From assembly GCF_003334315.1 (NCBI RefSeq), contig NZ_QOWR01000014.1: DNA of 64,000 nt; one strand, 5' to 3'. Position 1 is the stretch's first letter. Each line of letters begins with the position of its first letter. The notes beneath the pieces are model-generated. The model saw only the letters and a list, made by a program, of their open reading frames with translations. It was not told the origin of the DNA and ran no database searches. The position numbers were made by a program, and so were the translations under genes. The stretch comes from Escherichia coli. Lineage in GTDB: Bacteria > Pseudomonadota > Gammaproteobacteria > Enterobacterales > Enterobacteriaceae. This document shows positions 11,296-45,571 of this stretch, piece after piece.

Positions 11296-11500
<205 letters not shown>

Positions 11501-11504
11501 TGAC

Positions 11505-11894
11505 CTACAGACGTTTAAGCTTCGCAATTACCGGTTCATTGGCTGGCGGAAAATCATCGGCATTAAGACCGACCAGCGACATCCACTCACCGGGTTGCCC
11601 TTCTTTACCCCACGGCTCCCCTTCCCAGCGTTCGACCAGCCAAAACCACAGTGTTATATGCCTGTCCGGGAATTCATATTCCAGTTTTTCAAATAGCGAA
11701 AAATGTTGGGGGGTAATCCCGACTTCTTCCTGAAGTTCACGCACCACCGCCTGTTCCGGCGTTTCACCCATTTCAATTTTACCGCCGGGAAACTCCAGTT
11801 TATTCGCCATGTGCGCATCTGCTGCGCGACGCGTTATAAAGATTTCATTGTTCTCGTTGCGAATAATACCTACCGCAATTTGCAGCTTTTTCAT
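11505..11894 (-). CDS. mutT: 8-oxo-dGTP diphosphatase MutT (Nudix), 129 aa
   Basis: MKKLQIAVGIIRNENNEIFITRRAADAHMANKLEFPGGKIEMGETPEQAVVRELQEEVG... with Nudix box. Confidence 0.95.
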   Translation of the reverse strand: MKKLQIAVGIIRNENNEIFITRRAADAHMANKLEFPGGKIEMGETPEQAVVRELQEEVGITPQHFSLFEKLEYEFPDRHITLWFWLVERWEGEPWGKEGQPGEWMSLVGLNADDFPPANEPVIAKLKRL

Positions 11895-11908: not shown

Positions 11909-11936
11909 AAAAAAGGCGCAGAATCCTGCGCCTTTT
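11909..11936 (-). terminator. Rho-independent terminator downstream of secA
   Basis: Minus strand reads ggcgcag-gatt-ctgcgcc followed by a U-run, 20 nt after the secA stop. Confidence 0.7.
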
Positions 11937-11953
11937 ACTTCAACAGTTAGCTT

Positions 11954-14659
11954 TTATTGCAGGCGGCCATGGCACTGCTTGTATTTTTTACCAGAACCGC
12001 ACGGGCAAGGATCGTTACGTCCTACTTTGCGCTCTCCGGTTTGCGCCGCCAGTGCAGCTGCGGCTGCAGAGTCGTCATCCTGATGGCTAAGCTGCTGCAT
12101 TTGCGCTAAACGCTCGGCTTCCATACGACGCTGTTGTTCCAGCTCCTCAACCTCTTCAGGCATACGTACCTGAACTTTGCTCAGCGTACTGATAACTTCA
12201 TATTTCAACGACTCCAGCATCGCTGCAAACATGGAGAACGATTCACGTTTGTATTCCTGCTTCGGATCTTTCTGTGCGTAGCCACGCAGGTGGATACCCT
12301 GACGCAGATAGTCCATCGCTGCCAGGTGCTCTTTCCACAGGGAGTCAAGCGTTTGCAGCATGACGCCTTTCTCGAAGTGACGCATCATCTCAGCACCAAC
12401 CACTTCTTCTTTACGCTGATACACTTCGATGGACTGCGCCAGAATGCGCTCACGCAGCGTCTCTTCATGCAGTTCTGGTTCTTTATCCAGCCACTCGGCA
12501 ATTGGCAAATCGAGGTCGAAATCGTTCTTCAGACGTTCCTGCAGCCCCGGAATATCCCACATTTCTTCCAGCGACTGTGGTGGAATGTAGGCATCAATGG
12601 TCGCTTTGAACACATCTTCACGAATGCTGTTAATGGTTTCGCTCACATCGCTGACATCCAACAGTTCGTTACGCTGGGAGTAAATGGCGCGACGCTGATC
12701 GTTAGCCACGTCATCATATTCCAGCAGTTGCTTACGAATGTCGAAGTTACGGCTTTCAACTTTACGCTGGGCGTTGGCAATCGCTTTAGTCACCCACGGG
12801 TGTTCAATGGCTTCGCCTGGCTTCATACCCAGTTTACGCATCATGCCGGATACTCGGTCGGAAGCAAAAATACGCATCAGCGCATCTTCCATCGACAGGT
12901 AGAAACGGGAAGAACCAGCATCCCCCTGACGACCAGAACGACCGCGCAACTGGTTATCGATACGACGGGATTCGTGACGCTCGGTACCGATGATATGCAG
13001 GCCACCTGCTTCCAGTACCGCATCGTGACGTACCTGCCAGTCGGCTTTAATTTTTTCAATTTGCTCTGCGGTCGGATTTTCCAGCGCGGCAACTTCTGCC
13101 TGCCAGCTACCACCGAGCACAATATCTGTACCACGACCCGCCATATTGGTCGCGATAGTCACCGCAGCCGGATAACCTGCCTGAGCAACAATCGCCGCTT
13201 CGTTGGCGTGGAATTTGGCGTTCAGGACGTTGTGCTTAATACCGGCTTTGGTCAGTTCGTTTGACACCAGCTCCGATTTTTCGATGGAGATAGTACCCAC
13301 CAGCACCGGCTGGCCTTTCGCAGTACGTTCTTTGATATCTTCAATGATCGCCTGAATTTTTTCCGCTTCAGTCATGTAGACCAGGTCCGGCAGATCTTTA
13401 CGAATCATTGGACGGTTGGTCGGAACAACGACGGTATCCAGCTTGTAGATTGAGCTAAATTCGAAAGCTTCGGTATCAGCAGTACCGGTCATCCCCGCCA
13501 GTTTTTCATACAGACGGAAGTAGTTCTGGAAGGTGATCGAAGCCAGCGTTTGGTTTTCGTTCTGGATCTGCACACCTTCTTTCGCTTCCACAGCCTGGTG
13601 CAGACCATCGGACCAGCGACGGCCCTGCATGGTACGACCGGTGTGTTCGTCAACGATGATAACTTCACCATCTTTAACGATGTAGTCGACGTCACGGGTA
13701 AACAGCGCATGAGCGCGCAGCGCCGCCGTTACGTGGTGCATCAGCATGATGTTGGCCGGAGAGTACAGAGACTCCCCTTCATCCATGATGCCCTCTTTCA
13801 CCAGCAGTTCTTCAATCAGCACCAGACCACGTTCGGTCAGGTTCACCTGGCGAGATTTTTCGTCCACCGAGAAGTGGCCTTCGCCCTGGAAGGTTTCGGA
13901 GTCTTCTTTTTCCTGACGGATCAGGTGCGGAATAATTTTATTCACGCGTTTATACATTTCCGAGCTGTCTTCTGCCGGGCCGGAAATGATCAGCGGTGTA
14001 CGCGCTTCATCGATCAGGATGGAGTCCACTTCGTCCACCAGCGCATAGTGCAGTTTACGCTGTACACGTTCTTCAGGGCTGAACGCCATGTTGTCGCGCA
14101 GGTAGTCAAAGCCGTATTCGTTGTTCGTACCGTAAGTGATGTCAGCTGCGTAAGCTTCGCGCTTTGCCGGTGCTGGCATGCCCGGCAGGTTGATACCGAC
14201 AGTCAGGCCAAGGAATTCAAACAGCGGACGGTTGTTTTCGGCGTCACGTTGCGCCAGGTAGTCGTTGACGGTAACTACGTGCACGCCTTTACCGGTTAGT
14301 GCGTTCAGGTAAGCAGGCAGCGTTGCGGTCAGGGTTTTTCCTTCACCGGTACGCATTTCGGCGATGCAGCGTTCGTTAAGAACCATACCGCCGAGTAACT
14401 GAACGTCGAAGTGACGCATACCAAAGACGCGCTTACTTGCCTCACGTACCACGGCGAAAGCTTCCGGGATCAGATTTTCCAGCACTTCGCCTTTTTCCAG
14501 ACGTGCACGAAACTCTGCGGTTTTCCCTTTCAGTTCTTCGTCGGAGAGTTTTTCCATCTCCGGTTCCATGGCATTGATGATGTTGACCACTTTGCGCATC
14601 CGGCGCAGGGTGCGATCGTTACGACTACCGAAAACTTTAGTTAACAATTTGATTAGCAT
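11954..14659 (-). CDS. secA: Preprotein translocase ATPase SecA, 901 aa
   Basis: Full-length [50 protein letters not shown]...; C-terminal zinc-binding [14 protein letters not shown]. Confidence 0.97.
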
Positions 14660-16481: not shown

Positions 16482-17633
16482 TTAATCAGCTTGCTTACGC
16501 AGGAATGCTGGGATATCCAGATAATCCGGCTCTTTCGCAGTTTGCGGCGCATTGTCATTCACGACTTTAGCAACCGGCTTCTGCTCCTGGGTCAGCGGAG
16601 CCATCCCATGCTGCTGGTAGCGATCCATCACTGGCTGCTGAACCTGCTTATTGGTCACCAGAGTGATTTCAGGACGTTTGTCCATGCCGATACCTGTCGC
16701 AACAACGGTTACGCGCAGCTCGTCATTCATATCCGGGTCAAGAGAAGTACCGATAACCACAGTCGCGTTGTCGGAAGCAAATGCACGGATGGTGTTACCT
16801 ACCGTTTCGAACTCATCCAGACGCAGGTCGAAGCCCGCCGTGATGTTAACCAGCACGCCGCGCGCGCCAGACAGGTCGATATCTTCCAGCAGCGGAGAAG
16901 AGATAGCCATTTCAGCAGCTTCTTCCGCACGGTCTTCACCGCTCGCCACGCCAGAACCCATCATTGCGTAGCCCATCTCAGACATTACGGTGCGTACGTC
17001 TGCAAAGTCCACGTTCATCAAACCCGGACGAGTAATCAGTTCAGCGATACCTTGCACAGCGCCTTTCAGTACATCGTTCGCTGCGCCAAACGCATCCAGC
17101 AGGGAGATACCGCGGCCCAGAACTTTCAGCAGTTTGTCGTTCGGGATAGTGATCAGAGAGTCCACATGCTTGGACAGTTCAGTGATCCCCTGCTCCGCGA
17201 ATGCCATACGCTTCTTGCCTTCAAAGTTGAAAGGCTTAGTGACGACAGCAACGGTCAGGATACCCAAATCTTTTGCCACTTCAGCGACGACTGGTGCTGC
17301 ACCTGTACCGGTACCACCACCCATACCCGCAGCAATAAAGACCATGTCTGCACCTTCCAGCGCCGCACGCAATGCATCGCGATCCTCATCAGCCGCATTG
17401 CGGCCAACTTCTGGATTAGCGCCAGCGCCCAGTCCTTTGGTGATACCGCTACCGATTTGAATCGTCTGTCCAACCGCTGTTTTACGCAGCGCTTGTGCAT
17501 CGGTATTTACCGCGAAGAATTCAACACCTTCAATGCGCTCGCGCACCATGTGTTCAACAGCATTACCGCCGCCGCCGCCGACGCCGATGACTTTAATCAC
17601 CGCGTCATTGGTAAGTTCCATTGGTTCAAACAT
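16482..17633 (-). CDS. ftsZ: Cell-division tubulin homologue FtsZ, 383 aa
   Basis: [30 protein letters not shown]... with the GGGTGTG tubulin signature. Confidence 0.97.
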
Positions 17634-17693
17634 AGTTTCTCTCCGATTTGTGCCTGTCGCCTGAGGCCGTAATCATCGTCGGCCTCATAAAAA

Positions 17694-18956
17694 TTAAAAC
17701 TCTTTTCGCAGCCAACTATTGAGTCGCTTGATCCACGAGCCAACTGATGCTGTAACACGTTTTTCTACTTCAGCTTCACCGTTAAGATGTGACTCTTTCC
17801 CATAGTGAAGCAATCCCACCGCCGTCGAATAATACGGCTCCTGAGCATAATCCGTTAAACCGGTAATGTTCAGCGGCGCGCCGATACGCACTTGCGTATG
17901 AAACACGCGCTGAGCACAGGCTGCAAGACCTTCGATCTGCGCTGCGCCACCGGTTAATACAATGCCTGCCGCCAGGTGATGTTTAACCCCTTGTTGGCGA
18001 AGCTTTTCCTGCAACTGCAATATCTCTTCGTTGACCAGGTTGAGCAGCTCGGTATAGCGCGGCTCGATCACCTCTGCCAGTGTCTGACGTTGCAGACTCC
18101 GTGGCGGACGACCACCTACGCTCGGCACTTCCACGCTCTCATCTTTTCCAACGATGGAACCCAGCGCACAACCGTGGCGAACTTTAATCGCTTCGGCGTC
18201 GCTTGGCGGCGTGCCAAAGGCGTAAGCGATATCACTGGTCACGACATTGCCAGCATAAGGAATTACCTTAGTGTGGCGCAATGCCCCACCGGTATAAACG
18301 GCGATATCCATTGTACCACCACCGATATCGACGACGCAGACACCCAGTTCACGTTCATCTTCCGTCAATACCGAATAACTTGATGCCAGTCCGGCAAATA
18401 TCAGTTGGTCAACTTTCAGCCCACAACGTTCAACCGCTTTGACGATGTTTTTCGCCATATCGTTGTGACATGTGATCAGGTGCACTTTTGCCTGCATCCG
18501 CACGCCCGAAAGTCCTACCGGATTCTTGATCCCTTCCTGATAGTCAATCGCATACTCTTGCGGGATCACATGCAGCACACGATGCTCATCGCGCACACGC
18601 ACCGATTTCGCGGTATGGACGACGTTTTCCACATCTTCTTGCGTTACTTCTTCTTCAGAAATAGGCACCATACCAATTTCATTCTGGCAGCTGATATGCT
18701 TACCAGAAAGCGCCAGATATACCGAAGAGATCTGACAATCTGCCATCAATTCTGCCTGGTCAATGGCGCGCTGTACGCACTTGACCACGGATTCGAGGTC
18801 GTTCACCCCGCCTTTATCCATACCACGCGACGGGCAGCTGCCCACGCCAATGATATTGACCATACCGTCGGGCAGAACTTCCCCTACTAAAGCGGCAACC
18901 TTCGCGGTACCAATCTCCAGTCCTACTACCAGTTTTCTGTCCGTCGCCTTGATCAT
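17694..18956 (-). CDS. ftsA: Cell-division protein FtsA (actin-like ATPase), 420 aa
   Basis: Full-length [42 protein letters not shown]... Confidence 0.96.
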
Positions 18957-32845: not shown

Positions 32846-33304
32846 TTATAGAGACAAGTCCTGCAGTCGCTCCGATAAGTCTCCGGTAGCCAACTGCTCT
32901 GCGTCGATATCTTCCTTGACCTGTTGATGCCAGGTTGTTTCATCCCACAGCTCAAACTTGTTGAACTGTCCAACCAGCATCACTTCTTTTGTCAGCCCGG
33001 CATGTTGCCGCAGTACTGGCGCGATTAACAATCGACCTGCGCCATCCATCTGACATTCGCTGGCATGACCTAACAGTAGGCGCTGCACACGGCGCTCAAC
33101 CGGGTTCATGCTCGACAGACGCGATAATTTTTGCTCGATAATTTCCCATTCAGGCAGGGGGTAAAGCAGCAGGCACGGGTGATAAATGTCAATGGTGCAA
33201 ACCATTTGACCGGCAGCGTTCTCAAGCAGCTGTTCCCGATAACGGGTAGGCACTGATAAGCGCCCTTTGCTGTCGAGATTGACTAACGTTGCTCCCCGGA
33301 ACAT
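32846..33304 (-). CDS. mraZ: Transcriptional regulator MraZ, 152 aa
   Basis: ORF contains [35 protein letters not shown]...; ATG at 33302-33304 preceded by a Shine-Dalgarno-like aggggtgagg; first gene of the dcw cluster. Confidence 0.93.
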
Positions 33305-33323
33305 GCCAGCCTCACCCCTTATT

Positions 33324-33348
33324 CCCACTTTGCCCCACAATTTCCCAC
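33324..33348 (-). promoter_or_regulatory. Three GTGGG direct repeats at 10-bp spacing in the mraZ leader (MraZ operator, Pmra region)
   Basis: Plus strand shows cccac at 33324-33328, 33334-33338 and 33344-33348 (GTGGG on the gene strand), exactly one helical turn apart; matches the reported MraZ binding-repeat architecture. Confidence 0.7.
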
Positions 33349-33905
33349 TGAAAGGAGTTTACGGAGCTGAGGAAAAGCTTGTCAAGCCAGTCACAAGGCA
33401 TACCGAGGTAAAAAACCCGATGTTTACGGCTAATATCAGCGTTGTTTATTTTACGTCCAACGTGCGAAGCAAATTAACGTTATGAATAGCTGTAAGAAAA
33501 AATCCCTCATCGTCATCACTGTTTTAAAATGACTCACTATTTTCCACAGCAAATATAAAGTGTCAGTTTGCGACGCGAGCGGCATTTTAGGACATATCTT
33601 CCCCGGTTAACAGTCCTTGTTACGTCTGTGTGGCGCTTGATGCCAGCGGGTTTGCGCAAAAGCAAAGAAAAGTGTTTGTTAAATCGGCAATTCATCGCCG
33701 CATGTAACAAAATAATGCAAAAACGCGCTGTCGATATCACTTAATTATTGTGAATTTCAGCTGGTGAGTTAATTAACGGGCGGGTTTAAAAGCATTTATC
33801 AATAATAGTCAGGAATAGTCTTATTTACTTTAAGCATATTGATGTCCAGTCCCGTACTCTACGCGCCAGAGGGAAATTCACCTGGCGCGTATTTTTGTTC
33901 GCGGC

Positions 33906-39130: not shown

Positions 39131-39229
39131 AACTCACGCTGGCGGGACGTTTTTATTGCGTCAGGGTTGACATCCGTTTTTGTATCCAGTAACTCTAAAA
39201 GCATATCGCATTCATCTGGAGCTGATTTA

Positions 39230-39316
39230 ATGACTCACATCGTTCGCTTTATCGGTCTACTACTACTAAACGCATCTTCTTTGCGCGGTAGACGAGTGAG
39301 CGGCATCCAGCATTAA
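39230..39316 (+). CDS. leuL: leu operon leader peptide LeuL, 28 aa
   Basis: [28 protein letters not shown] with four consecutive rare CUA Leu codons (cta cta cta cta) followed by the attenuator hairpin. Confidence 0.92.
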
Positions 39317-39337
39317 GCCAGCACGCAGTCAAACAAA

Positions 39338-39366
39338 AAACCCGCGCCATTGCGCGGGTTTTTTTA
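39338..39366 (+). terminator. leu attenuator (rho-independent terminator)
   Basis: aaaaaa-cccgcgc-cattg-cgcgggttttttt, GC stem plus T-run between leuL and leuA. Confidence 0.9.
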
Positions 39367-39408: not shown

Positions 39409-42071
<2,663 letters not shown>

Positions 42072-45344: not shown

Positions 45345-45571
45345 AAAAAAAACCAGCAGGTATAATCTGCTGGCGGGTGATTTTACACCAATACTCAGTC
45401 ACACATGATGCAGGCAAGTCAACTTTCAGAATTGCGGTCATCCCACTGCATCAGTCCTTCAAGCATGGTTAATCGTTGTGGGACGCTTAACCAACGCAAC
45501 CAGCACAACTTCGCTGTCGCGGTAAAATAGTGCTGATAAAACTGACGCATGGGGCACCCCCTTGCTTCATC
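45345..45571 (-). ncRNA. sgrS: Small RNA SgrS (glucose-phosphate stress sRNA), about 227 nt
   Basis: Minus strand reads GATGAAGCAAGGGGGTGCCCCATGCGTCAGTTTTATCAG ... CCAGCAGATTATACCTGCTGGTTTTTTTT, matching SgrS as I recall it, including the 3' terminator hairpin with poly-U and the internal sgrT ORF. Confidence 0.9.
45419..45550 (-). CDS. sgrT: SgrT, 43-aa peptide encoded within SgrS
   Basis: MRQFYQHYFTATAKLCWLRWLSVPQRLTMLEGLMQWDDRNSES read from the ATG at 45548-45550. Confidence 0.85.
   Translation of the reverse strand: MRQFYQHYFTATAKLCWLRWLSVPQRLTMLEGLMQWDDRNSES

Follow-up and report, generated by a model that had tools for sequence, protein, structure and literature searches.

According to two papers that cite the original work on E. 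coli (PMC7761207; PMC8475190), MraZ binds to repeats located downstream of the -10 element of the promoter Pmra and represses the first 11 genes of the dcw cluster, from mraZ to murC, itself included. They attribute direct MraZ binding and MraZ-dependent repression in vivo to E. coli K-12. The cluster also contains internal promoters, and the distal dcw genes have promoters of their own. In a long-term E. coli evolution experiment, mutations just 5' of mraZ were recurrent early winners (PMC4301190).

MraZ sites have also been described in other bacteria. The site in Mollicutes is (AAAGTGKN3)3 (PMC5282649). Cryo-EM of the M. genitalium protein showed four MraZ subunits on four boxes, bound via beta-strands with the ring oligomer opened, and E. 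coli MraZ was proposed to be a dodecamer rather than an octamer (PMC12957436). The B. subtilis site is (GTGG[A/T]G-N4)x3; this triple occurs only once in the genome, and repression by MraZ depends on it (bioRxiv 10.1101/2022.02.09.479790). In B. cenocepacia, the site consists of four 7-nt repeats with 3-nt spacers (PMC7761207). Overexpressed MraZ was reported as an activator in M. gallisepticum, so repression is not universal.

In this study, we analysed a 64-kb stretch of E. coli DNA (64,000 nt, hereafter the window), in which three GTGG(G) boxes precede mraZ. We conclude that these boxes are almost certainly the MraZ operator that controls the mra promoter in the dcw cluster of E. coli. This operator is already known and experimentally characterised in E. 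coli. The motif, its period, uniqueness and position at the promoter, the MraZ gene with its DNA-contact residues and the conservation of the boxes come from this analysis. E. coli MraZ binding and repression and the structural mode of box recognition are taken from the literature.

Repeat array and mra promoter

The window is part of the E. coli chromosome, and its dcw cluster lies on the minus strand. The region showed 97-100% identity in 5424 of 5426 complete genomes. The RefSeq annotation lists cra, mraZ ('division/cell wall cluster transcriptional repressor MraZ'), rsmH, ftsL, and ftsI. The mraZ ORF matched the NCBIfam equivalog TIGR00242 with 227 bits, against a cut-off of 98. Its product has the DXXXR motifs D11-R15 and D87-R91, plus K13, and it aligned with the MraZ structures of M. 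genitalium and M. pneumoniae. In this alignment, K13, R15, and R91 of the E. coli protein match K13, R15, and R86 of the M. genitalium one, the residues that contact the GTG(T/G) bases in the cryo-EM complexes (PMC12957436). The features of the locus are as follows; the boxes are named for the protein that they very probably bind.

33380..33385, minus strand: Pmra -35 hexamer TTGACA, from a consensus scan; invariant in 66 distinct leaders
33356..33361, minus strand: Pmra -10 hexamer TAAACT after an 18-nt spacer, from a consensus scan; hexamer invariant in the 66 distinct leaders
33342..33349, minus strand: transcription start zone; about 33349 as predicted from the -10 hexamer, 33342 from the reported 38-nt 5' UTR
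33344..33348, minus strand: probable MraZ box 1, core GTGG at 33345-33348; first G 7 nt past the -10 hexamer
33334..33338, minus strand: probable MraZ box 2, GTGGG, with invariant TT(T) just 5'
33324..33328, minus strand: probable MraZ box 3, AAAGTGG + G; AAAGTGG invariant
33324..33348, minus strand: whole probable operator, three boxes at a 10-bp period on one helix face; unique in the window
33310..33318, minus strand: Shine-Dalgarno region GGGGTGAGG, read from the sequence
32846..33304, minus strand: mraZ coding sequence, 152 aa (TIGR00242, RefSeq annotation)

Read along the minus strand, the layout is TTGACA (33385-33380), an 18-nt spacer, TAAACT (33361-33356), CCTTTCA, GTGGGAAATT GTGGGGCAAA GTGGGAATAA GGGGTGAGGCTGGC ATG. 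The two hexamers gave 10 of 12 consensus matches in the scan, and TTGACA-18-TAAACT is a strong sigma-70 promoter. Direct reading and a pattern search located GTGGG on the minus strand at 33348-33344, 33338-33334, and 33328-33324; on the plus strand the three boxes read CCCAC. The box starts at 33348, 33338, and 33328 give an exact 10-bp period, and the boxes lie 44-20 nt 5' of the mraZ ATG (33304). The sequence-only reading had described three GTGGG repeats at exact 10-bp spacing, 20-45 nt 5' of this ATG, and its coordinates, spacing and distance were all correct.

We searched the 64-kb window for the pattern GTGGG-N5-GTGGG-N5-GTGGG and obtained a single match, at 33324-33348 (-). The core GTGG-N6-GTGG-N6-GTGG was likewise found once, against an expectation of 0.007. 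The exact GTGGG triple was absent from all 100 dinucleotide-preserving shuffles, and its analytic expectation, calculated from the GTGGG frequency, was 5e-5 per window. GTGGG itself was not enriched in the window (96 observed vs 117 expected). However, when any exact pentamer was allowed, three copies at a 10-bp period were expected 0.14 times per window, and at least one such triple was present in 13% of Markov-simulated windows. Since triples of this general kind are not very rare, the significance of the array comes from the identity, place and conservation of the motif and not from repetition alone. A full-text literature search for GTGGG alongside MraZ returned only primer sequences and unrelated matches.

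Several candidates for further boxes or sites were rejected. Two GTGG-N6-GTGG pairs (41135 and 55325) and, at 41125-41148, a triple with one mismatch were at chance level. Upstream of box 1, the sequence at the phase of a fourth box is ACTCC, within the -10 region. Downstream, the in-phase GGGG at 33318-33315, which forms the first four bases of the Shine-Dalgarno region, is a degenerate fourth unit, and through it a one-mismatch search of the window found the array shifted by one period. As this GGGG lacks the invariant T, it was not counted as a box. GGG at the phase of the fourth unit is conserved (leader alignment positions 37-39). Buttiauxella, Cedecea, Kosakonia, and some others, which have leaders of the 54-nt type, carry about 10 extra nt at the site of the fourth unit, e.g. 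GGGGAATTTA. By their sequence, these extra nucleotides look like a duplicated repeat unit.

The gap between TAAACT and box 1 is 7 nt, and the array overlaps the transcription start. A previous report gave a 5' UTR of 38 nt for the E. coli mraZ1p transcript (PMC5089854). With +1 at 33342, as given by this UTR, the boxes lie at -6 to -2, +5 to +9, and +15 to +19. With +1 near 33349, at the usual 7-nt distance from TAAACT, they lie at +2 to +26. The 38-nt UTR puts the start 14 nt past TAAACT, which is unusually far, and the geometry relative to +1 is therefore uncertain. With either start, the boxes overlap +1 or come directly after it, and the array extends over the start site and the initial transcribed region.

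Conservation of the boxes in near and distant leaders

Within E. coli, at least 5384 of the 5426 complete genomes, one of them a K-12 MG1655 derivative, share the identical 46-nt leader from box 1 to the ATG, and the boxes were essentially invariant. The common polymorphism of the 89-bp promoter-leader lies at 33368 in the -35/-10 spacer and leaves the boxes untouched; this base is A in the window and about 1300 genomes vs C in about 4100 genomes. One of 5424 E. coli genomes, WS3294A (NZ_CP035819.1), has a 5-bp deletion of CAGTG at window positions 33346-33350, by which the GTG of box 1 is lost. Either this strain carries a natural mutation of the operator, or the assembly is wrong at this point.

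We then compared the leaders of one genome per species. The scan gave 80 further Enterobacteriaceae loci, with an MraZ identity of 88-95%, or 81 with the window. GTGG-N6-GTGG-N6-GTGG was present in the leaders of all 81 species, and the -35/-10 spacer was 18 nt in all of them. The fifth base of boxes 1 and 2 was G in 80 of 81 species each. In contrast, the fifth base of box 3 (33324) varied: 54 species had T, 15 had C and 11 had A, and G was present in the window only. The box 3 fifth G is thus confined to E. coli among these species, with T, C or A in E. albertii and the others. GTGGG x3 is therefore an E. coli peculiarity over a GTGG x3 core, and the comparison of the leader sequences shows a conserved unit of GTGG followed by a six-base spacer rather than GTGGG. 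The earlier description of the repeat unit thus stands for GTGG in 81/81 species and does not extend to GTGGG.

The Enterobacteriaceae consensus is GTGGGAaTTT-GTGGGnnAAA-GTGG, 7 nt past the -10 hexamer. Freely varying columns were found just past boxes 2 and 3 and just 5' of box 1. Since hardly any position between -35 and box 3 varies in Enterobacteriaceae, these genomes alone separate boxes and promoter only at a few variable spacer columns. One locus of the scan comes from an assembly labelled Chryseobacterium sp. 18061 (CACSKA010000010.1). It has an Enterobacteriaceae-type mraZ locus with 92% identity to E. coli MraZ, and its displayed 75-nt leader equals that of Citrobacter sp. 18056. This assembly is probably mislabelled or contaminated.

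The repeats might also act in the 5' UTR at the level of translation or the mRNA, for instance as standby sites that resemble Shine-Dalgarno sequences or as part of a structured leader, and would then be kept for mraZ expression and not for the control of transcription. All three boxes lie, or nearly lie, inside the transcribed leader, and they share with Shine-Dalgarno sequences a high content of purines and of G. However, the gap from TAAACT to box 1 was 7 nt in 73 of 81 species and 6-8 nt in the rest, whereas the distance from box 1 to the ATG was 43-45 nt in 61 species and 52-54 nt in the other 20, a shift of about 10 nt. Since the gap to the -10 hexamer is kept and the distance to the ATG varies, the array is positioned relative to the promoter and not to the ribosome-binding site. 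The conservation in register that had been claimed from the sequence alone thus holds in 81/81 species for the exact period and, with a gap of 6-8 nt, for the position relative to -10, but not for the position relative to the ATG. In the distant leaders described below, the array lies 53-255 nt from the ATG. A structured cis-regulatory RNA leader was also rejected: the secondary structure of the leader RNA did not surpass that of shuffles (z = -0.29, with a program that does not model quadruplexes), and Rfam gave no match at the leader at the gathering threshold or at E<=1. Taken as an element of translation or mRNA, the repeats make a scarcely credible case.

Other RNA elements and conserved blocks were observed elsewhere in the window. 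The 601-bp cra-mraZ intergenic region contains non-coding blocks at 33551-33592, 33471-33500, 33701-33720, and 33671-33690 (-), far upstream of Pmra, e.g. CCTAAAATGCCGCTCGCGTCGCAAACTGACACTTTATATTT and TTTTCTTACAGCTATTCATAACGTTAATTT. These blocks are 78-98% conserved among 79 distinct Enterobacteriaceae upstream regions and had no Rfam match. A small protein encoded by a 44-aa ORF in the same region (33585-33451) was rejected as a candidate; the ORF is intact in only 9 of 79 species. Rfam gave a PssrA match ('plasmid-encoded Shigella sRNA A', 105 bits) at 17625-17714 (-), between a 420-aa ORF ending at 17694 and a 383-aa ORF starting at 17633. By position, these ORFs are ftsA and ftsZ, which places the PssrA match inside the dcw cluster. 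Further known RNA elements found with Rfam were SgrS, the leucine operon leader, a TPP riboswitch, STnc40, and three naRNA4 (REP-like) copies, with coordinates 45345-45571 (-), 39216-39365 (+), 47328-47427 (+), 11909-11978 (-), 11312-11505 (-), and 56178-56243 (+).

For more distant leaders, a word-indexed protein search gave only Enterobacteriaceae MraZ with at least 84% identity, and the distant set was taken from a 50%-clustered library with exact-sequence look-ups. It consisted of ten MraZ representatives with 36-62% protein identity on metagenomic contigs, and rsmH and ftsL lie 3' of all ten mraZ genes where the contig reaches. Eight of the ten leaders had two to four cores at an exact 10-bp period within 170 nt of the ATG. 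Five of these had three or four GTG cores, a result obtained in 0/2000 shuffles for each, and the leader L087 (57% identity) showed the full E. coli layout TTGACA-N18-TAAACT-N7-(GTGG)x3. The other three had two cores; in one of them, the contig ends at the array. Of the remaining leaders, L091 had a spacing of 11+9, and L088 (54% identity, 746-800) had two GTGG pairs 224-255 nt 5' of the ATG. From the sequence, this position would imply a long leader; a long mraZ leader has been described for Rhodobacter. Periods of 7-9 and 11-13 gave no chain of three in the distant leaders, and coding-sequence controls never had more than one core. The repeats were thus recovered in the orthologous leaders in which the sequence-only reading had proposed to look for them, in 81/81 Enterobacteriaceae species and largely in the distant set.

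A further possibility is that the repeats are the site of another regulator that binds direct repeats of about 10 bp, e.g. an OmpR/PhoB-type response regulator, and that the association with mraZ is incidental. Winged-helix response regulators typically use direct repeats one helical turn apart, which the array would suit. However, the GTG array of period 10 is also found with mraZ in distant leaders with otherwise unrelated promoters and flanks, and its pattern is found nowhere else in the 64-kb window. The same array has been reported in Mollicutes, Firmicutes, and Burkholderia, with MraZ binding demonstrated by EMSA or cryo-EM. The co-occurrence of array and mraZ across unrelated promoters and phyla makes another regulator very unlikely, and we give this explanation next to no weight.

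As marks of an MraZ operator, we considered three or more direct repeats that share a GTG(G/T) core, a separation of six nt (10-bp period), a promoter or leader position directly 5' of mraZ and at or downstream of -10, a downstream gene for a cognate MraZ with two DXXXR motifs and, after it, rsmH and ftsL, and boxes kept in orthologous leaders with variable spacers. The window has GTGGG x3 at this separation and in this position, followed by such an mraZ gene and by rsmH and ftsL, and the boxes were kept in 81/81 Enterobacteriaceae species. The proposal of an MraZ autoregulatory operator, made earlier from the sequence, therefore fits in motif, period and position, with a TIGR00242 gene downstream and a leader that is that of K-12.

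A possible G-quadruplex in the E. coli leader

The G-rich repeats may alternatively fold into a G-quadruplex, either in the non-template strand of the DNA or in the RNA of the 5' UTR, instead of or besides a protein operator. A canonical G-quadruplex motif, defined as four tracts of three or more G joined by loops of 1-7 nt, was found in the window. It reads GGG-N7-GGGG-N6-GGG-N5-GGGG at 33346-33315 (-), with a G4Hunter score of 1.59, and the box 3 fifth G (33324) completes its four tracts. A previous report described a G-quadruplex in S. aureus PmraZ and claimed a 'conserved G4 motif' in the mraZ promoters of Gram-positive as well as Gram-negative bacteria (PMC11796246). However, the canonical motif was present in only 1 of 81 Enterobacteriaceae leaders, because the GTGG of box 3 is followed by T, C or A elsewhere, and it was thus not conserved. 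The T of each GTGG is invariant and the 10-bp period is exact, both of which are needed by a protein that reads one face of the DNA but not by a quadruplex. Loops of 5-7 nt give weak quadruplexes. The folding score of the leader RNA given above (z = -0.29) also offers no support, within the limits of a program without quadruplex modelling. These results suggest that a quadruplex is a highly improbable explanation of the repeats.

The two could also coexist, and the 35 nt across the operator and the Shine-Dalgarno region would then be used twice in E. coli: the duplex DNA would be the MraZ operator, and either the non-template strand or the mRNA leader would fold into a G-quadruplex. We consider this double use very unlikely. 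If it were true, E. coli would have an extra, species-specific layer of control. Since an earlier claim of a quadruplex exists for the mraZ promoter of S. aureus, this idea is only partly new.

Proposed mode of repression and comparison with known MraZ sites

For the MraZ operator, the following mode of action may be proposed. MraZ is an oligomer in which each subunit carries two AbrB-like DXXXR half-domains. With a spacing of exactly one helical turn, all boxes face the same side of the DNA, and neighbouring subunits would put their beta-strand 'cradle' motifs in successive major grooves, one per box. Starting 7 nt past -10, the array spans the transcription start and the first 20-25 or so transcribed bases. 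The position of the array over the start site suggests that bound MraZ hinders RNA polymerase at Pmra. This hindrance may occur at open-complex formation or at promoter escape, with an MraZ oligomer on one face of the helix that occludes or traps the polymerase; the blocked step is inferred. The outcome would be less transcription of mraZ and of the promoter-proximal dcw genes, that is, negative autoregulation. The sequence-only reading had extended this control to the whole dcw cluster, which is overstated, as the reported repression runs from mraZ to murC and internal promoters exist. The site at Pmra sets how strongly the promoter-proximal half of this cluster of division and cell-wall genes is transcribed, with ftsL, ftsI, and the mur genes in that half. 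The value of the present case is that of a positive control, in which an established operator was recognised from sequence alone, without tools. The comparative data add a sharper Enterobacteriaceae consensus.

The array shares features with each of the described MraZ sites. Like the B. cenocepacia site, it has a 10-bp period and a GTG motif, and it lies downstream of -10 and over the transcription start; the B. cenocepacia site differs in its four repeats and a 100-nt 5' UTR. Like the B. subtilis site, it consists of three direct repeats with a GTGG core at a 10-bp period in Pmra, whereas the fifth and sixth repeat bases and the position relative to -35/-10 differ. With the Mollicutes site, (AAAGTGK-N3)x3-4, it shares the GTG(G/T) core, the 10-bp period and direct repeats at the mraZ promoter. 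Box 3 of E. coli, AAAGTGG, equals the Mollicutes unit AAAGTGK, but the A-rich 5' flank is found in E. coli at box 3 only. Unlike M. genitalium with its four boxes, E. coli has three clear boxes and the degenerate in-phase GGGG.

The closest system is the Pmra operator of E. coli K-12 at the same locus, as far as it is described in the citing papers (PMC7761207; PMC8475190), and the 46-nt leader is identical to that of the K-12 MG1655 derivative. In the description given by one of them, the published K-12 site likewise consists of repeats between the Pmra -10 and mraZ (PMC7761207). The window departs from most E. coli only at 33368 (A/C), and it shows no detectable difference from the K-12 operator.
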